The position numbers were made by a program, and so were the translations under genes. Of a DNA stretch of 64,000 nt, positions 28,998 to 37,217 are shown piece by piece. Numbering within the stretch: the first letter of the stretch is position 1; the number at the start of each line of letters is the position of its first letter. The notes below the pieces were generated by a model. That model worked only from the letters and a program-made list of their open reading frames with translations. It did not search any database and had not been told where the DNA came from. The DNA is from Chthoniobacterales bacterium (GTDB taxonomy: Bacteria > Verrucomicrobiota > Verrucomicrobiia > Chthoniobacterales > UBA6821): assembly GCA_044236545.1 (NCBI GenBank), contig JBIIGI010000002.1:134-64133 (forward strand). Direction: 5' to 3'.

Positions 28998-29964
28998 TTA
29001 TTATCGTGGCATGAGGGAGGAGGTGCGATTTTGACCGCAGTGGCCAACCCGAGATGCCTCATCATCGAGATCACCATCCAGCTCGGGTCGATCTGCCGCC
29101 ACGTGAGTCCATGGCGGGCGCTGGACGGGAAAGCGTGGTGATTGTTATGCCATCCCTCTCCGAGACCGAGAATCCCCATCAGGAAGTTGTTTCGGCTCTC
29201 GTCACCGGTCTGGTGATCCCGGCTTCCCCAGAAGTGGCAAATGCTGTTCACGCTCCAGGTGACGTGATGAACCATGAAGACCCTGACCAGACCGCCCCAG
29301 AGGAACCCCAAGAATGCCCCGGTCCAGGTGTGGGTGACCACGCCGGCGATCACCCCAGGAATGAGCAATCCGATCACGGCCCAGAGGAGAAAAAGCCGAT
29401 CGATGGTGACGATGCGGGGGTCAGCGAGCAAGTCCGGGGCGTAGCGTTGAGGATCGGTCCGCGTGGAGTCAGAGTTGAAAAACCATCCCATGTGGGCATG
29501 GAGAAGTCCCTTGATGGCTCCCAAGATACCGGGCTTCCTGCCTACGTGGGGGGAATGGGGATCCATTTCCTTGTCGGAGTAGCGGTGATGCCGCCGATGG
29601 GTGGCAACCCACCAGATGAGGTTACCCTCCACCGCCATGCTGCCAAGAACTCCCAGCGTGTAGACGATGGCCGGGTTGGTCTTGAATCCTCCGTGGGAAA
29701 AAGACGGTGAAATCCGATTGTGATTCCAAAACCGGTCAGAAGGTACATCACGCCGAAGAGCGCCAAATACATGGGGCCGAAATACCCTCCCCAAAGCAGG
29801 ATCATCGCAGCAATCACGCCGAGAGGCGGCAGAAAGATCACCACAACGCGGATCAACTTCCAGAGGAGAGTATGGGGTCGCTCCCGATGCAACGCATTCG
29901 CCCCCTTCAGTGCGTGATCATGGACGATTTCTCCTCTCATAAGCAGTGGGAAACTATCCCTCAT
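28988..29964 (-). pseudogene. Membrane fatty-acid desaturase copy 2, frameshifted within His box 1
   Basis: ORF 29542..29964 reads ...GFGITIGFHRLF, then goes out of frame. ORF 28988..29794 picks up ...SHGGFKTNPAIVY..HRRHHRYSD..HNNHHAFP. The frames meet at the A5 run 29698-29702 (T5 on the coding strand). One extra T would restore HRLFSH. Confidence 0.75.
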
Positions 29965-30766
29965 CCTTTTTCAAAAACAAGCGTGCGGGGACACGACGCT
30001 CTTCCGCAGATGAGTAGTCTTTCACGCATGCCCCCCGGGAAAAAAGGGTCAACCGGGAGTGGTGCGGTTTCCTGCCAAGGGATCGGCACGGCGGGATGGC
30101 GTGATACCTCATAGCGGCCGATTCACCTGAGACCTCCAGGATGGTCATGCTCACTGTCTCTGCGTCATCCCTGTGCATGCAAATTGAAGCGGCCCCCTCA
30201 TCCGGATCGTGTGAGGAGTGTAACCGCTCAAGCCACGGAAGCGTGCCGGCATCAGGTTCCTCAGCCGCCTTGAGACATGCGGCACTCCTTGTCGTGATGG
30301 CGGAGGCTTCATCGTGTCCCGAGGAAAACCAATGGGCCGTGGTCAAAGGGTGATCCACCCGTTCGGTTCCGGATCCCTCCGAGCGGTATTCACGGATGCC
30401 GTCGGCGCTCCTGCCGATCACAAAGAGACGGAATGGATTCAATCGTTCCAGCGGAAGCAAAAACAGGCTTCGTTCCATGTCGTCCAGTGAAGGGAAGGCA
30501 AGGAGCCGCGGGATGATTGCGCCACGACTGAACGCCGGATCTCCTTTGTATTGTGGGCGTGAGTACCAGTTGATCAAGGCTACACAGAGTCCCGCCTCAT
30601 TGATTCCGATCCAGGTCCCACCGGCCGGTTCAAAGGGGTAGAGGGCGGAAAGATCGCCGCACCGGTGCACGGCGGGAGGAAGGGCTGCTGTGCGGGCGCG
30701 CTGTTCATCGCGGTTCATCCCGAGCAGGATTCCGTCGGCCTTGGGGACAAGGGAAAGGGTGCACAT
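29954..30766 (-). CDS. NRDE-family (TANGO2/DUF833-like) protein
   Basis: Starts MCTLSL (Cys2, Ntn-hydrolase-like) and carries the eponymous GMNRDE motif. Confidence 0.8.
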   Translation of the reverse strand: MCTLSLVPKADGILLGMNRDEQRARTAALPPAVHRCGDLSALYPFEPAGGTWIGINEAGLCVALINWYSRPQYKGDPAFSRGAIIPRLLAFPSLDDMERSLFLLPLERLNPFRLFVIGRSADGIREYRSEGSGTERVDHPLTTAHWFSSGHDEASAITTRSAACLKAAEEPDAGTLPWLERLHSSHDPDEGAASICMHRDDAETVSMTILEVSGESAAMRYHAIPPCRSLGRKPHHSRLTLFSRGACVKDYSSAEERRVPARLFLKKDEG

Positions 30767-30770
30767 CGGA

Positions 30771-32399
30771 TCAGTCGGCGACAGGGTGACAACGGCTGAG
30801 ACGGCGGTAGGAAATCCACTCCCTCAGGATCGTAGTGACGGAATCAGGACGATGTCCCCGCTTTCTGTTTTCCGCTCCGATGGCAAAGGCGAGTTCCCAG
30901 TGACGGAAAAGCAGGGCAAACGCCTCCGTGATCCTCTTCGAGGCGTCGTAGGCGCTGGTCGGTTCCCCGGCCACCCCGTTGAGCTCAAGGATCTGGAATC
31001 CCCGTCCCTGGCCGAGGGCTTGGGCCGACTCGTAGCGCACGTCGTAGCGTCCGATAAAGAACCCGTGAAGAGCTTTCGATATCCGGTCAATGGATCCCTC
31101 CAGCTCCTCCGTACAAAGAGACATGCCGTCGCTGAAGAGGCATCCTTGGGCGTGGTTTCCGGCCTCGACGAGACGGAGCGCCTCCCCTTGTTGAAGCACG
31201 TGGCCCCGTCGCTCGTGGAATCGTCTCAGCAATGTCTCCGATTGGTTTCTGGCACGCTCATCCCCCAGAATGAGTTGCTCGATGGTTTGCTCTCCATCGC
31301 CGATGAGCTTCGGGAAATGCTTTTCCGTGATGGCCAAGATCCTCCCCTTCTCCGCGCCGGGAAACCGGTAGTAGAAGATTCCCGCCTCAAGTGGTCCGGG
31401 TACATAGCGCTGGACGATCACGGGCAGCGGAACCGCCTCCAGATATGCCCCCGCCTCTTCTCGGGAGCGGATGACTTTGAATCCGCTCCCGCGCAATCCG
31501 AGATCCGGTTTCAGGATGACCGGGTAGTGTGTCCCGCTGTCGCTGAGGAAGTCATCAAAGGCGGCAATCCTCGAACCGGTCAAGTCATCCACTGCTTCCG
31601 GAATCAGTGCCGTTGCCGGCACGAATTCGGGTGAGGTTTCCAACAGCTCTCTCAGGGTGGCGAACTTGGATTCACCCACCAGACCTCCTGTCTTGATGCC
31701 GGGATTGGCGGCGCTCGGCAGGGTGATGGAGCCGTGTTGCACCGAGAGGGTCAGGTAGCGCCATGCGATCGGGAGATAAAAGATCCATGCGGGCCAGAAC
31801 TCCCACCGCGTGAGTCTCTCCAGGGCGGGTAGTTTCGAGAGCGTGCGGATCAGAAAGCCGGTGAGGCGGATTCCAACGATAAGAAGAACCATCCCCCCGA
31901 GAATCCAGAGCAGATGACCCTTGAGTGCGTGGATAAAGTCGGGTGCGGCATGCCCCAGCAGGTGAACGATGAGAAAGACCGCAATAACCCAAACTGCGGC
32001 CAATGTTCCGGTCAGAAGAAGAAACAGCGCGGTATCCATGCGGAGAAAACCCGCCGCCAGGAATGTCGGCAGTCTCAGTCCTGGAATAAACCTCGAGACG
32101 GCGATCGCCACGATGCCGCTCTTCCGGAACCATTCTTCACTCCGCTCGATCCGCTCTTTCCAGCGTGATCCCGACTTCAGGAAGCGCGAGGCCATCGGTC
32201 GCCCGCCATGCTTTGCGAGCAGATAGAGAAGGAAATCCCCGCTCCAGATTCCTCCGAAGCACGCAAGAAAACCCTCCCAGGGGATGAGGGTGCCGGAGGC
32301 CACCGCAAGACCGCCTGCCAGCACAGCGGCATCCTCTGAGAGATAAGTGAAGAAGAAGAGAGCAATCAGCTCCCAAATCCCATGCGGAGAACCATCCAT
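30771..32399 (-). CDS. Fusion protein: N-terminal DedA/VTT membrane domain plus C-terminal ATP-grasp carboxylate-amine ligase-like domain
   Basis: N-terminus FFFTYLSEDAAVLAGGLAV and 5-6 TM helices. C-terminus PVILKPDLGLRGSGFKVI (ATP-binding Lys loop), VIVQRYVPG and FQILELNGVAGEPT (the ExN Mg-ATP motif of the ATP-grasp fold). Confidence 0.7.
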   Translation of the reverse strand: MDGSPHGIWELIALFFFTYLSEDAAVLAGGLAVASGTLIPWEGFLACFGGIWSGDFLLYLLAKHGGRPMASRFLKSGSRWKERIERSEEWFRKSGIVAIAVSRFIPGLRLPTFLAAGFLRMDTALFLLLTGTLAAVWVIAVFLIVHLLGHAAPDFIHALKGHLLWILGGMVLLIVGIRLTGFLIRTLSKLPALERLTRWEFWPAWIFYLPIAWRYLTLSVQHGSITLPSAANPGIKTGGLVGESKFATLRELLETSPEFVPATALIPEAVDDLTGSRIAAFDDFLSDSGTHYPVILKPDLGLRGSGFKVIRSREEAGAYLEAVPLPVIVQRYVPGPLEAGIFYYRFPGAEKGRILAITEKHFPKLIGDGEQTIEQLILGDERARNQSETLLRRFHERRGHVLQQGEALRLVEAGNHAQGCLFSDGMSLCTEELEGSIDRISKALHGFFIGRYDVRYESAQALGQGRGFQILELNGVAGEPTSAYDASKRITEAFALLFRHWELAFAIGAENRKRGHRPDSVTTILREWISYRRLSRCHPVAD

Positions 32400-32942
32400 T
32401 CAGGAACGGGAGAGGGCACTTTCCTTCCGGTAATGGACGGTCGAGGGGGCGACTCCAAATCCCTTGGGGAGGAGGGCGCCAAGCGACCGGCAGATCATCG
32501 CGATAAGGGCGTAGTGATGGATCGCATGAGAAATGGAGAACATAACCTCCCTCTCGAAGGAGGAGTGCACGACGGGTGAGTGGCTCTCCGTATAGGAGAC
32601 CCCGCATCTCACGGTCACGGGGGAGGCGAGGATGGAGGTGTCGAGAGAGGAGGCCAGATCCTGAAGGTGACGTGTCATTTCAAGTGCCGCGCGACGATTA
32701 TTCTCGAGTTCTGGATCACGTTTGCGGGCGTCGTAGTCGATCCCGCCGGAGGCATCGCCCGTCAGTAGCGCCCCGAAATGATCGAGGCAGTGACGATAAT
32801 GGGCCCCGATCGAGGCTCCCGAGGCGATCGGAAGCATCGCCGTGTAGGTCGCGTCATCGAGGGAGTCGAGCAGGGAGGTTCCCTGCGCAAGAACCGCACC
32901 TAGGGATTCGATCAGTGTGTTGGCGGCCGTTTCCTTCTCCAT
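32400..32942 (-). CDS. DinB-family (DinB_2-like) four-helix metalloprotein
   Basis: His-rich helices IGAHYRHCLDHF and SISHAIHHYALI. ATG 32942 shares one base with the DoxX stop, and the stop abuts the next gene's start. Confidence 0.55.
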   Translation of the reverse strand: MEKETAANTLIESLGAVLAQGTSLLDSLDDATYTAMLPIASGASIGAHYRHCLDHFGALLTGDASGGIDYDARKRDPELENNRRAALEMTRHLQDLASSLDTSILASPVTVRCGVSYTESHSPVVHSSFEREVMFSISHAIHHYALIAMICRSLGALLPKGFGVAPSTVHYRKESALSRS

Positions 32943-33346
32943 CAGGGGAGCAGCTTGCCGATCACGGGAATGGAACGGCGATGGATCAGGAGAAGAATGG
33001 CTGAGCAAAGGGCGACGGTGAGCGCCAATCCGAAGAGCAGGCCATGATCATTCATGACCACGATGCCGAGCACTGTCAGGTGACTCATGATTGCCCCTCC
33101 CATTACGGCGAGCGCGAGGCCGGCGCCTAGCCAGACGGTTCCCGGGATCAGGAGCAGGATCGCAGCGATCAGTTCGGCGATTCCGGAGCCGATGCGGCCC
33201 GGGGCTCCGAGTCCTACCTTATCGAAGATGTAGACCGACTCGGGTGCGGCGGTGAATTTGAAGAACAGGGTCTGGGCCAAGATCACGGCGGCGGTGATCC
33301 GAAGGAGCCAAGAGAGAATGGAGAGTGCTTTGGAGGGTTGGTTCAT
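32942..33346 (-). CDS. DoxX-family membrane protein
   Basis: 134 aa with four TM helices. RITAAVILAQTLFFKF...GIAELIAAILLLIP is typical of DoxX. Confidence 0.75.
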   Translation of the reverse strand: MNQPSKALSILSWLLRITAAVILAQTLFFKFTAAPESVYIFDKVGLGAPGRIGSGIAELIAAILLLIPGTVWLGAGLALAVMGGAIMSHLTVLGIVVMNDHGLLFGLALTVALCSAILLLIHRRSIPVIGKLLP

Positions 33347-33383
33347 GGTGGAGTCAGGCGTTGGTCAATGATCAGAGAGGTGG

Positions 33384-33833
33384 TTACTTGCCTTTTTTCT
33401 CCTCGAGGAGGGGCCAGTTTTGGTCTGCCTTCCCGAGATTCACGGCGGCATCTTTGTTGAACTTTTCCATGATCCCCTTGCTGTACTGGAGGAGGAGCCG
33501 GCCGTTCACGATCTGGAATGCCGTGGGATCGATTTCGACCAACGATCCTCTTGAGAGGCCATAGGCACAGAACCCTCCGAACTGCGGTTCGTACTTGGCG
33601 GGATTGGTGTCGAAGGTCGCCTTGTGCTCGGGGGTGGCGAAGTAGTAAGTCACCCCATCGGCGGTGCTGGTGATCGAGGAGTTCCCTTGGATGGCCTTGG
33701 CGTCAGTGAAATAGGCGACCGGGTCGTATCCCTTGATGCCGAGTCCATGGCGGTCGACATTGACCAGCGTTTTTGCGGGTAGTAATGAGGTCGCCGCAAG
33801 AAAGAGGAGCGGGGTCAGGAAGCGGTTCTTCAT
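33384..33833 (-). CDS. Secreted YHS-domain protein
   Basis: Internal ATG 33833 gives the signal peptide MKNRFLTPLLFLAATSLLPA. KGYDPVAYFTD...YYFATPEHKATFDTNPAKYEPQFGGFCAYG is the YHS/TRASH-like pattern. Confidence 0.8.
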   Translation of the reverse strand: MKNRFLTPLLFLAATSLLPAKTLVNVDRHGLGIKGYDPVAYFTDAKAIQGNSSITSTADGVTYYFATPEHKATFDTNPAKYEPQFGGFCAYGLSRGSLVEIDPTAFQIVNGRLLLQYSKGIMEKFNKDAAVNLGKADQNWPLLEEKKGK

Positions 33834-33938
33834 GGCACGAATGTGTCTCAATTTCAGTAGACAGGGGATGGGGGATTTGAAAGAAGATTTCTCCATGGGA
33901 GGCATGATCTGTACAATGCCCAAAAGACACTCTCTTTC

Positions 33939-34706
33939 GTGATGTTCAAGAACCGATACGCCGTCCGATTTGCCTCGGGCCGGGAGGAGATCAGGGCGGC
34001 TTTGCGGCTGCGATTCGAGGTCTTCAATCTGGAAATGAACGAAGGTCTGCGTTCTTCCCACGAAGCCGGCGTCGACGAGGATGAGTACGACGCCGTCTGC
34101 GACCACCTCATCATTCTCGAGGAAAACTCGGGTGTCATCGTCGGAACCTACCGGATGCAGAGCGGCGCCATGGCTGCGGGTAACCTAGGTTACTACAGCG
34201 CCAGGGAGTTTGACTTCTCTCCTTTCGAGTCGATCCGCGGTTCCCTGATCGAGTTGGGGCGTGCCTGCGTCCACAGGGATCACCGGAGCATCATCGTCAT
34301 CAGCATGCTCTGGAAGGAGATCGTTCGCTACGTGCTGAAGAATAATGCCCGCTACATGATCGGATGCAGCTCCCTGACCTCTCAGGATCCTGCCCTGGGT
34401 CATGCCATGTACCGGAAGATGGCAAAGGAGGGAGCGCTTGCCGATGCCTCCTTTCTCACAAAACCGCTCCCGCACTTCGCACTCCCCCTTGCTGAGCCGC
34501 TGGAACCATGTCCCCCTCCCCCGAAACTCTTGAGGGCCTATCTCGGAGTGGGTGCCAAGATCTGCGGGGAGCCTGCCATCGACCGTGAGTTCGGGACGAT
34601 TGACTTTCTGACCATGCTGGATTGCCGGCATGGATCGCCCATTGCCACGGAACGCTTCCTGGAGCGCCCCAATGGAATCAAGGAGATGAAGGAATCCACA
34701 TCGTGA
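33939..34706 (+). CDS. OlsB/GlsB-family amino-acid N-acyltransferase (GNAT/hemolysin-like; lyso-aminolipid synthase)
   Basis: FKNRYAVRFASGREEIRAALRLRFEVFNLEMNEG...DEDEYD..CDHLII..GTYRM is characteristic of the lyso-ornithine/glycine-lipid synthase family. Start is GTG 33939 or ATG 33942. Confidence 0.7.
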   Translation: MMFKNRYAVRFASGREEIRAALRLRFEVFNLEMNEGLRSSHEAGVDEDEYDAVCDHLIILEENSGVIVGTYRMQSGAMAAGNLGYYSAREFDFSPFESIRGSLIELGRACVHRDHRSIIVISMLWKEIVRYVLKNNARYMIGCSSLTSQDPALGHAMYRKMAKEGALADASFLTKPLPHFALPLAEPLEPCPPPPKLLRAYLGVGAKICGEPAIDREFGTIDFLTMLDCRHGSPIATERFLERPNGIKEMKESTS

Positions 34707-35455
34707 GAACAATTCACTTGCCTCGCATGTTGGTGAGACTTGTTCATCTTGGATGGGTCATTGTTTCAGGGATGACCTGCCTGCCTTGGTTTTTCATGAC
34801 GGCACGCGGGGGACGGGTGACCGCCCGGATTGCCTGGATGCAATGGATGAGTCGCCGTTTTTTGACACTGCTTCACTGCGATGTAAAAGTTGTTGGAAAA
34901 GTTCCCGAGTCAGGGCTCATCGCCTGCAATCATCTCGGTTATGTGGATATCTTGGTGATCGGTTCCGTCTGTCCTGCAGTTTTTGTAGCGAAGAGCGATG
35001 TGAAATCCTGGCCGATCTTCGGGTGGCTCGCCTCGCGAGCGGGGACGATTTTTGTGAGCCGTGATGATCGTGCTGAGGTCGCGCTCCAGTTAAAGGAGAT
35101 GGAGATACCCCTCAGGAAGCGACATCCCGTGGTCCTTTTCCCCGAAGGGACGAGTTCGGACGGATCCTCGGTGCTCCCGTTCCGCAGTTCCCTGTTCGAG
35201 TCGGTGATTGCCACGGGAAGTCCGATCACCCCCGCCGCCATCGGATATGACCTTAGGGGAGAAGGTTCGGTCGGCAACGAAATCGCTTACTGGGGCGATC
35301 TCGTCCTGCTTCCGCATTTGCTGAATCTCCTCTCCAAGAAATCCTTCGTGGCCAGACTTGTCTTCGGAACATCCAGAAAGCCGATGCCGGATCGCAAGCA
35401 GGAGGCGACACTCCTCCATGCGGAGGTCTCGGCACTTCATCAATCCATTCCATGA
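34703..35455 (+). CDS. OlsA/GlsA-like lysophospholipid (lyso-aminolipid) O-acyltransferase
   Basis: HX4D CNHLGYVDILV and FPEGTSSDGS. GTG 34703 overlaps the upstream stop (GTGA). Alternative ATG at 34727. Confidence 0.75.
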   Translation: MRTIHLPRMLVRLVHLGWVIVSGMTCLPWFFMTARGGRVTARIAWMQWMSRRFLTLLHCDVKVVGKVPESGLIACNHLGYVDILVIGSVCPAVFVAKSDVKSWPIFGWLASRAGTIFVSRDDRAEVALQLKEMEIPLRKRHPVVLFPEGTSSDGSSVLPFRSSLFESVIATGSPITPAAIGYDLRGEGSVGNEIAYWGDLVLLPHLLNLLSKKSFVARLVFGTSRKPMPDRKQEATLLHAEVSALHQSIP

Positions 35456-35790
35456 AACCCATTGTCTGCAATCTTTTCGCTCAGACTTCCTCTCTCAAGG
35501 GAGAGGAGGAAGTTCGCCCGCTGCTCATCGGACAATCCTTCAGACTTGAGTCGATCCATTCCTACGGCCAGCCAAGTCCCGAGGGATTCTGGTATGACCA
35601 ACCCGGTGACGAGTGGGTTCTGCTGGCCTGTGGCTCCGCGCGCCTTGAGTTTGAGGGGGAGCGAATCGACTTGAAACCGGGTGATCACCTCCTGATTCCT
35701 GCCCATTGCCGTCATCGTGTCGCTTCTGTCTCGGGGGATGCGGTCTGGCTGGCGCTTCATGCTGATGCCCGCCTACATTCGGAAGCATGA
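35452..35790 (+). CDS. Cupin-domain protein
   Basis: 112 aa. DEWVLLACGSARLEFEG...LKPGDHLLIPAHCRHRV is a cupin motif 1/2 pattern. ATGA overlaps on both sides. Confidence 0.7.
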   Translation: MKPIVCNLFAQTSSLKGEEEVRPLLIGQSFRLESIHSYGQPSPEGFWYDQPGDEWVLLACGSARLEFEGERIDLKPGDHLLIPAHCRHRVASVSGDAVWLALHADARLHSEA

Positions 35791-37217
35791 GCGAATCCAG
35801 CAACGAGCCGCCAGCGAGCGATCCCATTCCGCAACCGGATAAGGGGGGAATCGTTGTCCCGCTGTGGCGGCTGGGCTGGTATTTTTTCTTGATCGCCCTG
35901 ACAACCGTCCAGGGTGCTGCAGTCCACATGCGACGTCAGGTGGTGCATCGGCGGAAACTGATCTCGGAGAAGGAATTTATCGAGAGTTTTGCACTGGCGG
36001 AGTTTCTTCCTCAGCCGGACAGCACCTTCGGGCTAGCCGTGCATGTCGGTCATCGGGTAAGGGGAATCCCCGGAGCCATCGTTGTTGCGATTGCCATGAT
36101 CATCCCTTCGTTTCTTCTCGCCGTGCTTCTGGGAAGTGCCTTCATCCATTTTCACAGGGTCACGTGGGTTGTTGCGATTGCGGCCGGCGCCGGTGCGGCT
36201 GTGTGTGCCGTGATTGGCGCCACGTTGCTCGAAATCGGCAGGAAGGCCGTCATGGATTACCGGGATCTCTTGCTAATCTTTATCGTCTTCGTGCTGTTGC
36301 GTTACGGGATTCTCCATATCTCCGGCGTCTTGCTCTGGATAGCGCCCATTGCACTCTGGCTGCATCGCCCATCCCGTCACGAGAAGTTGCATGGCATGAT
36401 TGAGCCTCCTGGGCTTGTGCCCACGCTTGGCTTCCGACACTTCCTGCGTAAAAAATCCTATCAGATCCTCAACTCGGAGCGGTGGGGCATGATCGTGACT
36501 GCGCTTGTGGTCTTGGCGATGATGGGGGTTATTGCATCAGTAGAGAAAAGTGGCCCCGTCCTTTTGGGAAAAATCCATGGCACTATCTTTCATGATCATA
36601 AGCCGGACAAGGAACAGGCATGCCCCGCCATCCCGATCAAGTTGCCGGAATCCGGATCACCTTCGGCATTTCCGATAGCACCCATCTGCACCGATCTGGT
36701 CTCCACCTTCTCGGCTCTCTCCGTCTGTGCATTTGGCGGGGAGGAGACCATCCTGCCCTGCATGCAGCGGGCTAGTGTGAGTCATCACAACTGGATGGAT
36801 AAGATGGATTTCCTTAACTTCTTCTCACTCAGTTTCATCATTCCCGGTCCCAGCATGCTTGCTGCCTTCATCGGGCTAAAGGCCTGCATTCCCTTCGGTC
36901 AGCAATGGGCCCTTGTGGGCGCCTTGATCGCGATGCTGGCTCTCTTCGTTCCCAACATGGTGGTGATTTTGGCAGCCGCCCATTCCTGGGATTGGTTAAA
37001 GGCTTGGCGATGGCGTCCCTCGATTGGAAAGGCCCTCATCATCATCGCCTCGGGTGCCTTGGCGGCCGCCTTCATGTTCATCACCGAGTCGGCCGTTCAA
37101 TCCACTCCCTCGGCACTGATCGCCTTGAGTTGCGCGGTGCTACTCCTGATCACCGACCTCAATCCGGTCCTGATCATCCTCATCTCGGGAGGGGCGGGCT
37201 GGATGTTCCTTGGATGA
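35787..37217 (+). CDS. chrA: Chromate transporter (CHR family, two fused CHR domains)
   Basis: Polytopic. FLIALTTVQGAAVHMRRQVVHRRKLISEKEF and a second half with ILPCMQRASVSHHNWMDKMDFLNF match the duplicated CHR domain. Confidence 0.75.
   Translation: MSESSNEPPASDPIPQPDKGGIVVPLWRLGWYFFLIALTTVQGAAVHMRRQVVHRRKLISEKEFIESFALAEFLPQPDSTFGLAVHVGHRVRGIPGAIVVAIAMIIPSFLLAVLLGSAFIHFHRVTWVVAIAAGAGAAVCAVIGATLLEIGRKAVMDYRDLLLIFIVFVLLRYGILHISGVLLWIAPIALWLHRPSRHEKLHGMIEPPGLVPTLGFRHFLRKKSYQILNSERWGMIVTALVVLAMMGVIASVEKSGPVLLGKIHGTIFHDHKPDKEQACPAIPIKLPESGSPSAFPIAPICTDLVSTFSALSVCAFGGEETILPCMQRASVSHHNWMDKMDFLNFFSLSFIIPGPSMLAAFIGLKACIPFGQQWALVGALIAMLALFVPNMVVILAAAHSWDWLKAWRWRPSIGKALIIIASGALAAAFMFITESAVQSTPSALIALSCAVLLLITDLNPVLIILISGGAGWMFLG

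Follow-up and report, generated by a model that had tools for sequence, protein, structure and literature searches.

Four plus-strand genes follow one another with overlapping stop and start codons in a 64,000-nucleotide stretch of DNA from a Chthoniobacterales bacterium (assembly GCA_044236545.1, contig JBIIGI010000002.1; the whole stretch is called the window here). They encode an OlsB-like N-acyltransferase, an OlsA-like O-acyltransferase, a small cupin and a long transporter of the chromate (CHR) family, referred to here as ChrA. The first two make up an aminolipid synthase pair (OlsBA) that is real and ordinary. But what are a cupin and a CHR transporter doing behind it? An earlier note on this DNA saw in the cupin a possible new aminolipid-modifying dioxygenase or isomerase, and took the coupling to the CHR gene as a sign that this transporter may carry something other than chromate. 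The comparisons described below point elsewhere: the cupin and the CHR gene are probably genus-specific operon passengers at a rearrangement-prone site, not conserved functional partners of OlsBA, and OlsB–OlsA is the stable unit of the four. What the sequences show directly is the domain families and motifs, the overlaps of the genes and their patterns of linkage; the absence of a functional tie between OlsBA and the two downstream genes is what we infer.

Linkage of the four genes

How often do these genes travel together? Outside the genus, 21 OlsBA loci from other genera of the phylum were compared, with about 8 kb fetched on each side, together with the best 80 of at least 596 cupin family matches, whose neighbours were considered within 6 kb. 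An OlsA homologue lies directly downstream of OlsB in all 21 loci, and in none of the 21 do the flanks of about 8 kb contain a homologue of the cupin or of the CHR protein. Seen from the side of the cupin, OlsB, OlsA or ChrA occurs within 6 kb in none of the 80 loci, and no family of neighbours is shared by more than five of them. The contexts are unrelated (radical SAM in Pseudomonas, DapF in a Verrucomicrobiae metagenome-assembled genome, PEP-CTERM proteins elsewhere). Within the same order, cupin homologues but no gene of PF13444, the family of the OlsB-like protein, are found in G027 (a 100% complete genome) and in G034 (91%); the G027 match contains one in-frame stop.

Inside the genus, the sample consisted of 22 other species genomes (G handles) plus metagenome contigs and loci (L handles). 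OlsB is present in 11 of these genomes, the orthologous long ChrA in four and the cupin in two, and OlsB and OlsA are adjacent in 12 of 12 OlsB-bearing genomes of the genus. The four genes fall in a variable slot of a syntenic backbone, which runs TANGO2–VTT–DinB–orf134 (DoxX-like)–YHS150 up to the slot and continues as ChrA–(DUF4436)–(M15 peptidase)–(MFS)–PBP–TauE–EamA. The slot reads OlsB–OlsA–cupin–ChrA in the window, in G007 and in the metagenome contigs L038 and L065/L066, and L063 has the same order with an opposite-strand amino-acid permease gene between cupin and ChrA. OlsB–OlsA–ChrA without the cupin is found in L198 (ChrA identity 58%), cupin and ChrA without OlsBA in G004 and in L201, where an opposite-strand gene splits the pair, ChrA alone in G001 and G006, and OlsBA alone in G002. 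More distant ChrA orthologues (49–51% identity) stand alone at another site in L199 and L202. Eight genomes carry OlsBA at a housekeeping site, where OlsB–OlsA–MsrA–ArgG follows AhpC and neither cupin nor ChrA adjoins.

What does this mean for the proposed partnership? The earlier note equated absence of the linkage from all related genomes with fortuitous adjacency. Strictly, such absence was not found, as the four-gene order recurs in several same-genus lineages; its conservation does not extend to any of the 21 OlsBA loci or the 80 cupin loci elsewhere. A functionally meaningful coupling of OlsBA to the CHR gene finds no support in these 21 loci, and within the genus all combinations of the genes occur. 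The idea of the cupin as a new aminolipid-modifying enzyme fares no better, being linked at none of the 21 OlsBA loci and none of the 80 cupin loci and separating from OlsBA within the genus.

A tree of concatenated OlsB and OlsA, rooted with G031, places the YHS150-adjacent site as paraphyletic with G002 basal (supports 86/94, 91/90 and 98/99); it has two long branches, which make the root uncertain. The topology suggests that the YHS150-adjacent site is ancestral and that a single translocation took OlsBA to the housekeeping site, after which cupin and ChrA were frequently lost. At the housekeeping site of G003 (L029:5975-7738), a PBP428 gene and fragments of TauE (53 amino acids) and EamA (125 amino acids) lie between OlsA and MsrA. 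These inserted genes come from the right-hand flank seen in the window, which points to recombination between the two sites.

Some points weigh against regarding the two genes as passengers. In five of five lineages in which the genes for OlsA and the cupin adjoin (the window, G007, L038, L063 and L066), the two still overlap by ATGA, with cupin identity down to 58%, a pattern that selection for co-expression could produce. The losses that followed the move of OlsBA could mean that cupin and ChrA are of little use once uncoupled from it. Patchiness, finally, is also a trait of the genes for the known tailoring enzymes OlsC, OlsD, OlsE and OlsG, and alone it leaves a tailoring role possible. 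The cupin/ChrA overlap is found only in the window and L038; elsewhere the two are separated by gaps of about 20–105 nucleotides.

Gene layout and junctions

Direct inspection of the junctions bears out the four plus-strand genes joined by a GTGA (34703-34706) and two ATGA overlaps (35452-35455 and 35787-35790) that the earlier note had described. How much should be read into them? An NTGA overlap alone is cheap, since an A, G or T in front of a TGA stop is enough to produce one. Support for the starts in Table 1 comes from homologues, whose alignments set in at the first residues: the cupin family alignment begins at Met1, and ChrA and OlsA orthologues align from residues 1–8. Other possible starts are an ATG at 33942 for OlsB and, for OlsA, a TTG at 34622 (the start in the list of open reading frames) or an ATG at 34727. 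No convincing terminator was found between the four genes, which are probably co-transcribed in the source genome. A scan by consensus for a sigma-70-like site in the divergent intergenic region upstream of olsB found none. Composition (G+C and third-position G+C, GC3) gave no anomaly that would mark any of the four genes as foreign, all having a G+C content of 0.55–0.59.

Table 1. Features of the window around the four-gene run
Feature	Position	Strand	Description
TANGO2 / VTT(DedA)::ATP-grasp / DinB / DoxX-like orf134 / YHS150 module	29954-33836	-	Assigned with Pfam; divergent from olsB
Divergent intergenic region between the YHS-led minus-strand operon and olsB	33837-33938		Defined by the layout of open reading frames; presumed promoter region
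OlsB-like N-acyltransferase gene	33939-34706	+	255 amino acids; GTG start; PF13444
OlsA-like PlsC-family O-acyltransferase gene	34703-35455	+	250 amino acids from GTG; PF01553
Small monocupin gene, 2OPK family	35452-35790	+	112 amino acids; PF07883
Long two-domain CHR-family transporter gene (ChrA)	35787-37217	+	476 amino acids; two PF02417 stretches

The OlsB/OlsA synthase pair

The assignment of the first two genes to the two-step aminolipid route, as N-acyltransferase and PlsC-type O-acyltransferase, stands at family level on Pfam domains, motifs and the 21 of 21 adjacency. The first protein matches PF13444 (Acetyltransf_5, GNAT-like) with 107.6 bits against a cut-off of 22.4. Its best NCBIfam matches are the OlsB equivalogs NF052554 and NF052555, with 124.2 and 123.2 bits against unreached cut-offs of 350 and 320, and it is therefore called OlsB-like and not an equivalog. 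The match to OlsF (53.3 bits, below the cut-off of 620) involves the N-acyltransferase part only, and that to GlsB gives 15.5 bits (cut-off 300, not reached). It is the sole PF13444 gene of the assembly, a Verrucomicrobiota metagenome-assembled genome (2.47 Mb, 95% complete), and OlsF was not found in these 2.47 Mb. The second protein matches PF01553 (Acyltransferase) with 84.8 bits and has the HX4D motif as HLGYVD at residues 77–82 and EGT at 148; its best NCBIfam matches, NF052553 (lyso-ornithine lipid O-acyltransferase) and NF052552, give 128.6 and 117.9 bits, below the cut-off of 300. The OlsB/OlsA ornithine-lipid pathway of the Sinorhizobium meliloti type likewise consists of a PF13444 N-acyltransferase and then a PlsC-family O-acyltransferase with HX4D and EGT (PMC12971839), but against the equivalogs of that pathway the proteins of the window score about a third of the cut-offs (124 versus 350; 129 versus 300). 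At such scores the head group is not assignable from sequence. A PDB sequence search with the OlsB-like protein gave no match at E≤1, so there is no structural template for head-group specificity either.

What would the pair make? The N-acyltransferase would transfer a 3-hydroxyacyl chain from acyl-acyl carrier protein to the α-amino group of an amino acid, for which ornithine is the best guess and lysine, glutamine or another amino acid is possible. In the second step the PlsC-type enzyme would attach another acyl chain to the 3-hydroxyl as an ester, and the predicted product is a phosphorus-free acyloxyacyl aminolipid. OlsB homologues are known that make ornithine, glutamine (e.g. GluB) or lysine lipids, the lysine lipid coming from some OlsBA pairs (PMC12971839).

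Two of the loci from other genera have an extended layout. In G249 and G216 (L180:8159-10585 and L181:8262-10685), two tandem OlsB paralogues, about 50% identical to OlsB of the window, precede a single OlsA; the neighbours are DinB, TANGO2, DoxX-like and YHS genes and a gene that matches only residues ~192–527, the non-VTT part, of VTT542 of the window. This layout resembles OlsB and GluB sharing one OlsA, and by analogy two head groups may be made there. Amino-acid permease genes were also noticed near OlsBA. One of the APC family lies directly upstream of OlsB–OlsA on the same strand in G190 (L178:9048-10457), and in L063 (5277-6746) the one between cupin and ChrA lies on the opposite strand; such permeases may bring in the amino acid used for the head group. 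An apparent 803-residue OlsB 'fusion' in G190 was rejected as an open-frame artefact, the permease being a separate upstream gene in another frame.

The cupin

The third gene encodes a cupin by domain (PF07883, Cupin_2, 32.1 bits) and by predicted structure. Its profile match to PDB 2OPK has an E value of 1.6e-32 over residues 1–107. An AlphaFold2 (AF2) model (predicted local distance difference test, pLDDT, 90) superimposes on 2OPK in Foldseek with a template modelling (TM) score of 0.85 and a root-mean-square deviation of 2.0 at 49% identity. Sequence and model thus agree on a member of the 2OPK-type small cupins, and the modelled fold itself is a cupin. 2OPK is Reut_A1446 of Ralstonia eutropha JMP134, a structural-genomics 'putative mannose-6-phosphate isomerase' of the same family; this label is only the title of the deposit, and the entry has no assigned function. 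No paper that mentions the entry 2OPK in connection with cupins was found. With at least 596 confirmed matches to the signature FWYDQxxxEW in many phyla, the family is widespread and free-standing. TIGR03890 (Nif11/cupin) gives 87.9 bits, short of its cut-off of 159.45, and only its cupin part (profile positions 70–170) is matched.

Is this a dioxygenase? The invariant residues of the 2OPK family are E33, S37, Y48, D49, Q50, E54, D78, H88 and R89. Motif 1 reads FWYDQxxxEW and departs throughout the family from the canonical G(X)5HXH(X)3-4E(X)6G, with no HxH; of the canonical motifs only E54 and the motif-2 histidine H88 are kept, again family-wide. A profile alignment to 3-hydroxyanthranilate dioxygenase puts Y48, E54 and H88 on the H/E/H positions of that enzyme, which we take to be its His/Glu/His iron ligands. 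With no HxH and these three residues in place, a non-canonical metal site is possible and a standard dioxygenase is not indicated, which weakens the dioxygenase proposed in the earlier note. That note also contrasted the cupin with the known tailoring enzymes on the grounds that these are not cupins. OlsC, the LpxO-like ornithine lipid hydroxylase (PF05118), has a double-stranded β-helix fold and belongs to the cupin clan of Pfam, so the contrast is valid only for small monocupins. A search for PF05118 (the OlsC/LpxO type) in the source genome gave no match, but the control search matched nowhere either. No sequence relationship between the cupin and OlsC, OlsD, OlsE or OlsG was found; what it has in common with them is a patchy distribution relative to the synthase genes.

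Could the cupin be an optional tailoring or accessory protein of this genus all the same, for instance an isomerase, a hydroxylase or a partner that binds the lyso-lipid, which was drawn from the 2OPK family and whose translation is coupled to that of OlsA? We consider this unlikely. The overlap with OlsA argues for it, conserved as it is in five lineages and even in L063, where the permease gene separates ChrA; so do the invariant polar cluster of Y48, D49, Q50, E54, D78, H88 and R89 and the alignment of three of these residues with the presumed iron ligands of the dioxygenase. However, the site still carries the cupin in G004 and L201, where OlsBA lies elsewhere, 10 of the 12 OlsB-bearing genomes of the genus lack it, and so do all 21 OlsBA loci outside the genus. 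Family members also occur in genomes without a PF13444 gene and in unrelated contexts, and the HxH motif is missing. Quite unlikely, too, is a broader proposal in which aminolipid synthesis in this freshwater genus has acquired the cupin and the divergent CHR transporter as an accessory module, with the cupin modifying or chaperoning the (lyso-)aminolipid and the transporter moving a solute related to the head group.

The CHR transporter

The fourth protein contains two PF02417 (Chromate_transp) stretches in one polypeptide (172.3 bits), about 10 hydrophobic segments and a non-hydrophobic stretch at ~253–345 between its halves. The long-chain ChrA chromate efflux transporters of the CHR superfamily likewise have two PF02417 domains and about 10 hydrophobic segments, but the protein of the window is at most 33% identical to ordinary ChrA, is ~80–100 residues longer and has an extended inter-domain stretch. 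It scores 136.2 bits against TIGR00937 (chromate efflux; cut-off 171.7, not reached) and is also below the ChrA/ChrB equivalog cut-offs. About 70 clusters of at least 49% identity and 460–490 amino acids form its clade; beyond them, identity to ordinary ChrA of 350–400 amino acids is at most 33%. A split pair of short-chain CHR genes outside the window (G000:C59:3813-4957), 32–41% identical to the halves of ChrA, is present in 22 of 22 genus genomes searched, so that the long ChrA of the window is an extra copy; there is a third, weak CHR match on C52. The protein is an accessory paralogue from a narrow, divergent clade. ChrA orthologues are short in L065:5775-6908 (377 amino acids) and L201:4786-5598 (270 amino acids), compared with about 476–489 otherwise, and these two may be frameshifted or decaying.

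Might the cupin and the transporter be a functional pair of their own, the cupin acting in the cytoplasm to assist or regulate the transporter, and merely lie downstream of OlsBA? They are together without OlsBA in G004 (with a gap of about 60 nucleotides) and at the same site in L201, and they overlap by four nucleotides in the window and L038. Even so, such a pair is very unlikely: no cupin accompanies the orthologous ChrA of G001, G006, L198, L199 and L202, an opposite-strand gene separates the two in L063 and L201, and no CHR gene lies near the cupin in any of the 80 loci elsewhere. The least probable of the alternatives is that the transporter carries, in place of chromate, a solute with a part in aminolipid metabolism or in the remodelling of membranes; this could be sulfate, phosphate or another oxyanion, or else a precursor of the head group. 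In its favour are the narrow clade below the TIGR00937 cut-off, the persistence of OlsBA–ChrA adjacency without the cupin in L198 and the extra-copy status of the gene. Against it stand the 21 OlsBA loci with no CHR gene, the orthologues unlinked to OlsBA in G001, G004, G006, L199 and L202, steadier ChrA neighbours in a VanX-like M15 peptidase and an MFS transporter and, to our knowledge, a record of CHR substrates limited to chromate (and sulfate-related effects).

The divergent operon

On the other side of the intergenic region lies the minus-strand module of TANGO2, VTT::ATP-grasp, DinB, DoxX-like and YHS genes, which is syntenic throughout the genus. The VTT::ATP-grasp/TANGO2/DinB genes adjoin OlsBA in five of the 21 loci from other genera (L179, L180, L181, L183 and L188), mostly on the same strand. 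The module is the only OlsBA neighbour conserved beyond the genus.

Implications

Three consecutive start/stop overlaps do not by themselves show a shared pathway, and this locus is a reminder of it. If the cupin and the transporter did form an accessory module of aminolipid synthesis, it would give both orphan families their first function. New aminolipid biology in the window is better sought in the divergent VTT::ATP-grasp/TANGO2/DinB operon than in the cupin or the CHR gene. What remains for the phylum is a modest positive. A review of 2026 lists OlsF and GlsB homologues for Verrucomicrobiota, not OlsB (PMC12971839), and another paper describes the genes for ornithine lipids in Akkermansia muciniphila as unidentified (PMC12710885). 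Homologues of the N-acyltransferase are present in 69 of 301 sampled Verrucomicrobiota genomes, covering 40 of 149 genera, and OlsB/OlsA-type pairs, to which genes 1 and 2 belong at family level, prove to be an ordinary and common possession of this phylum.

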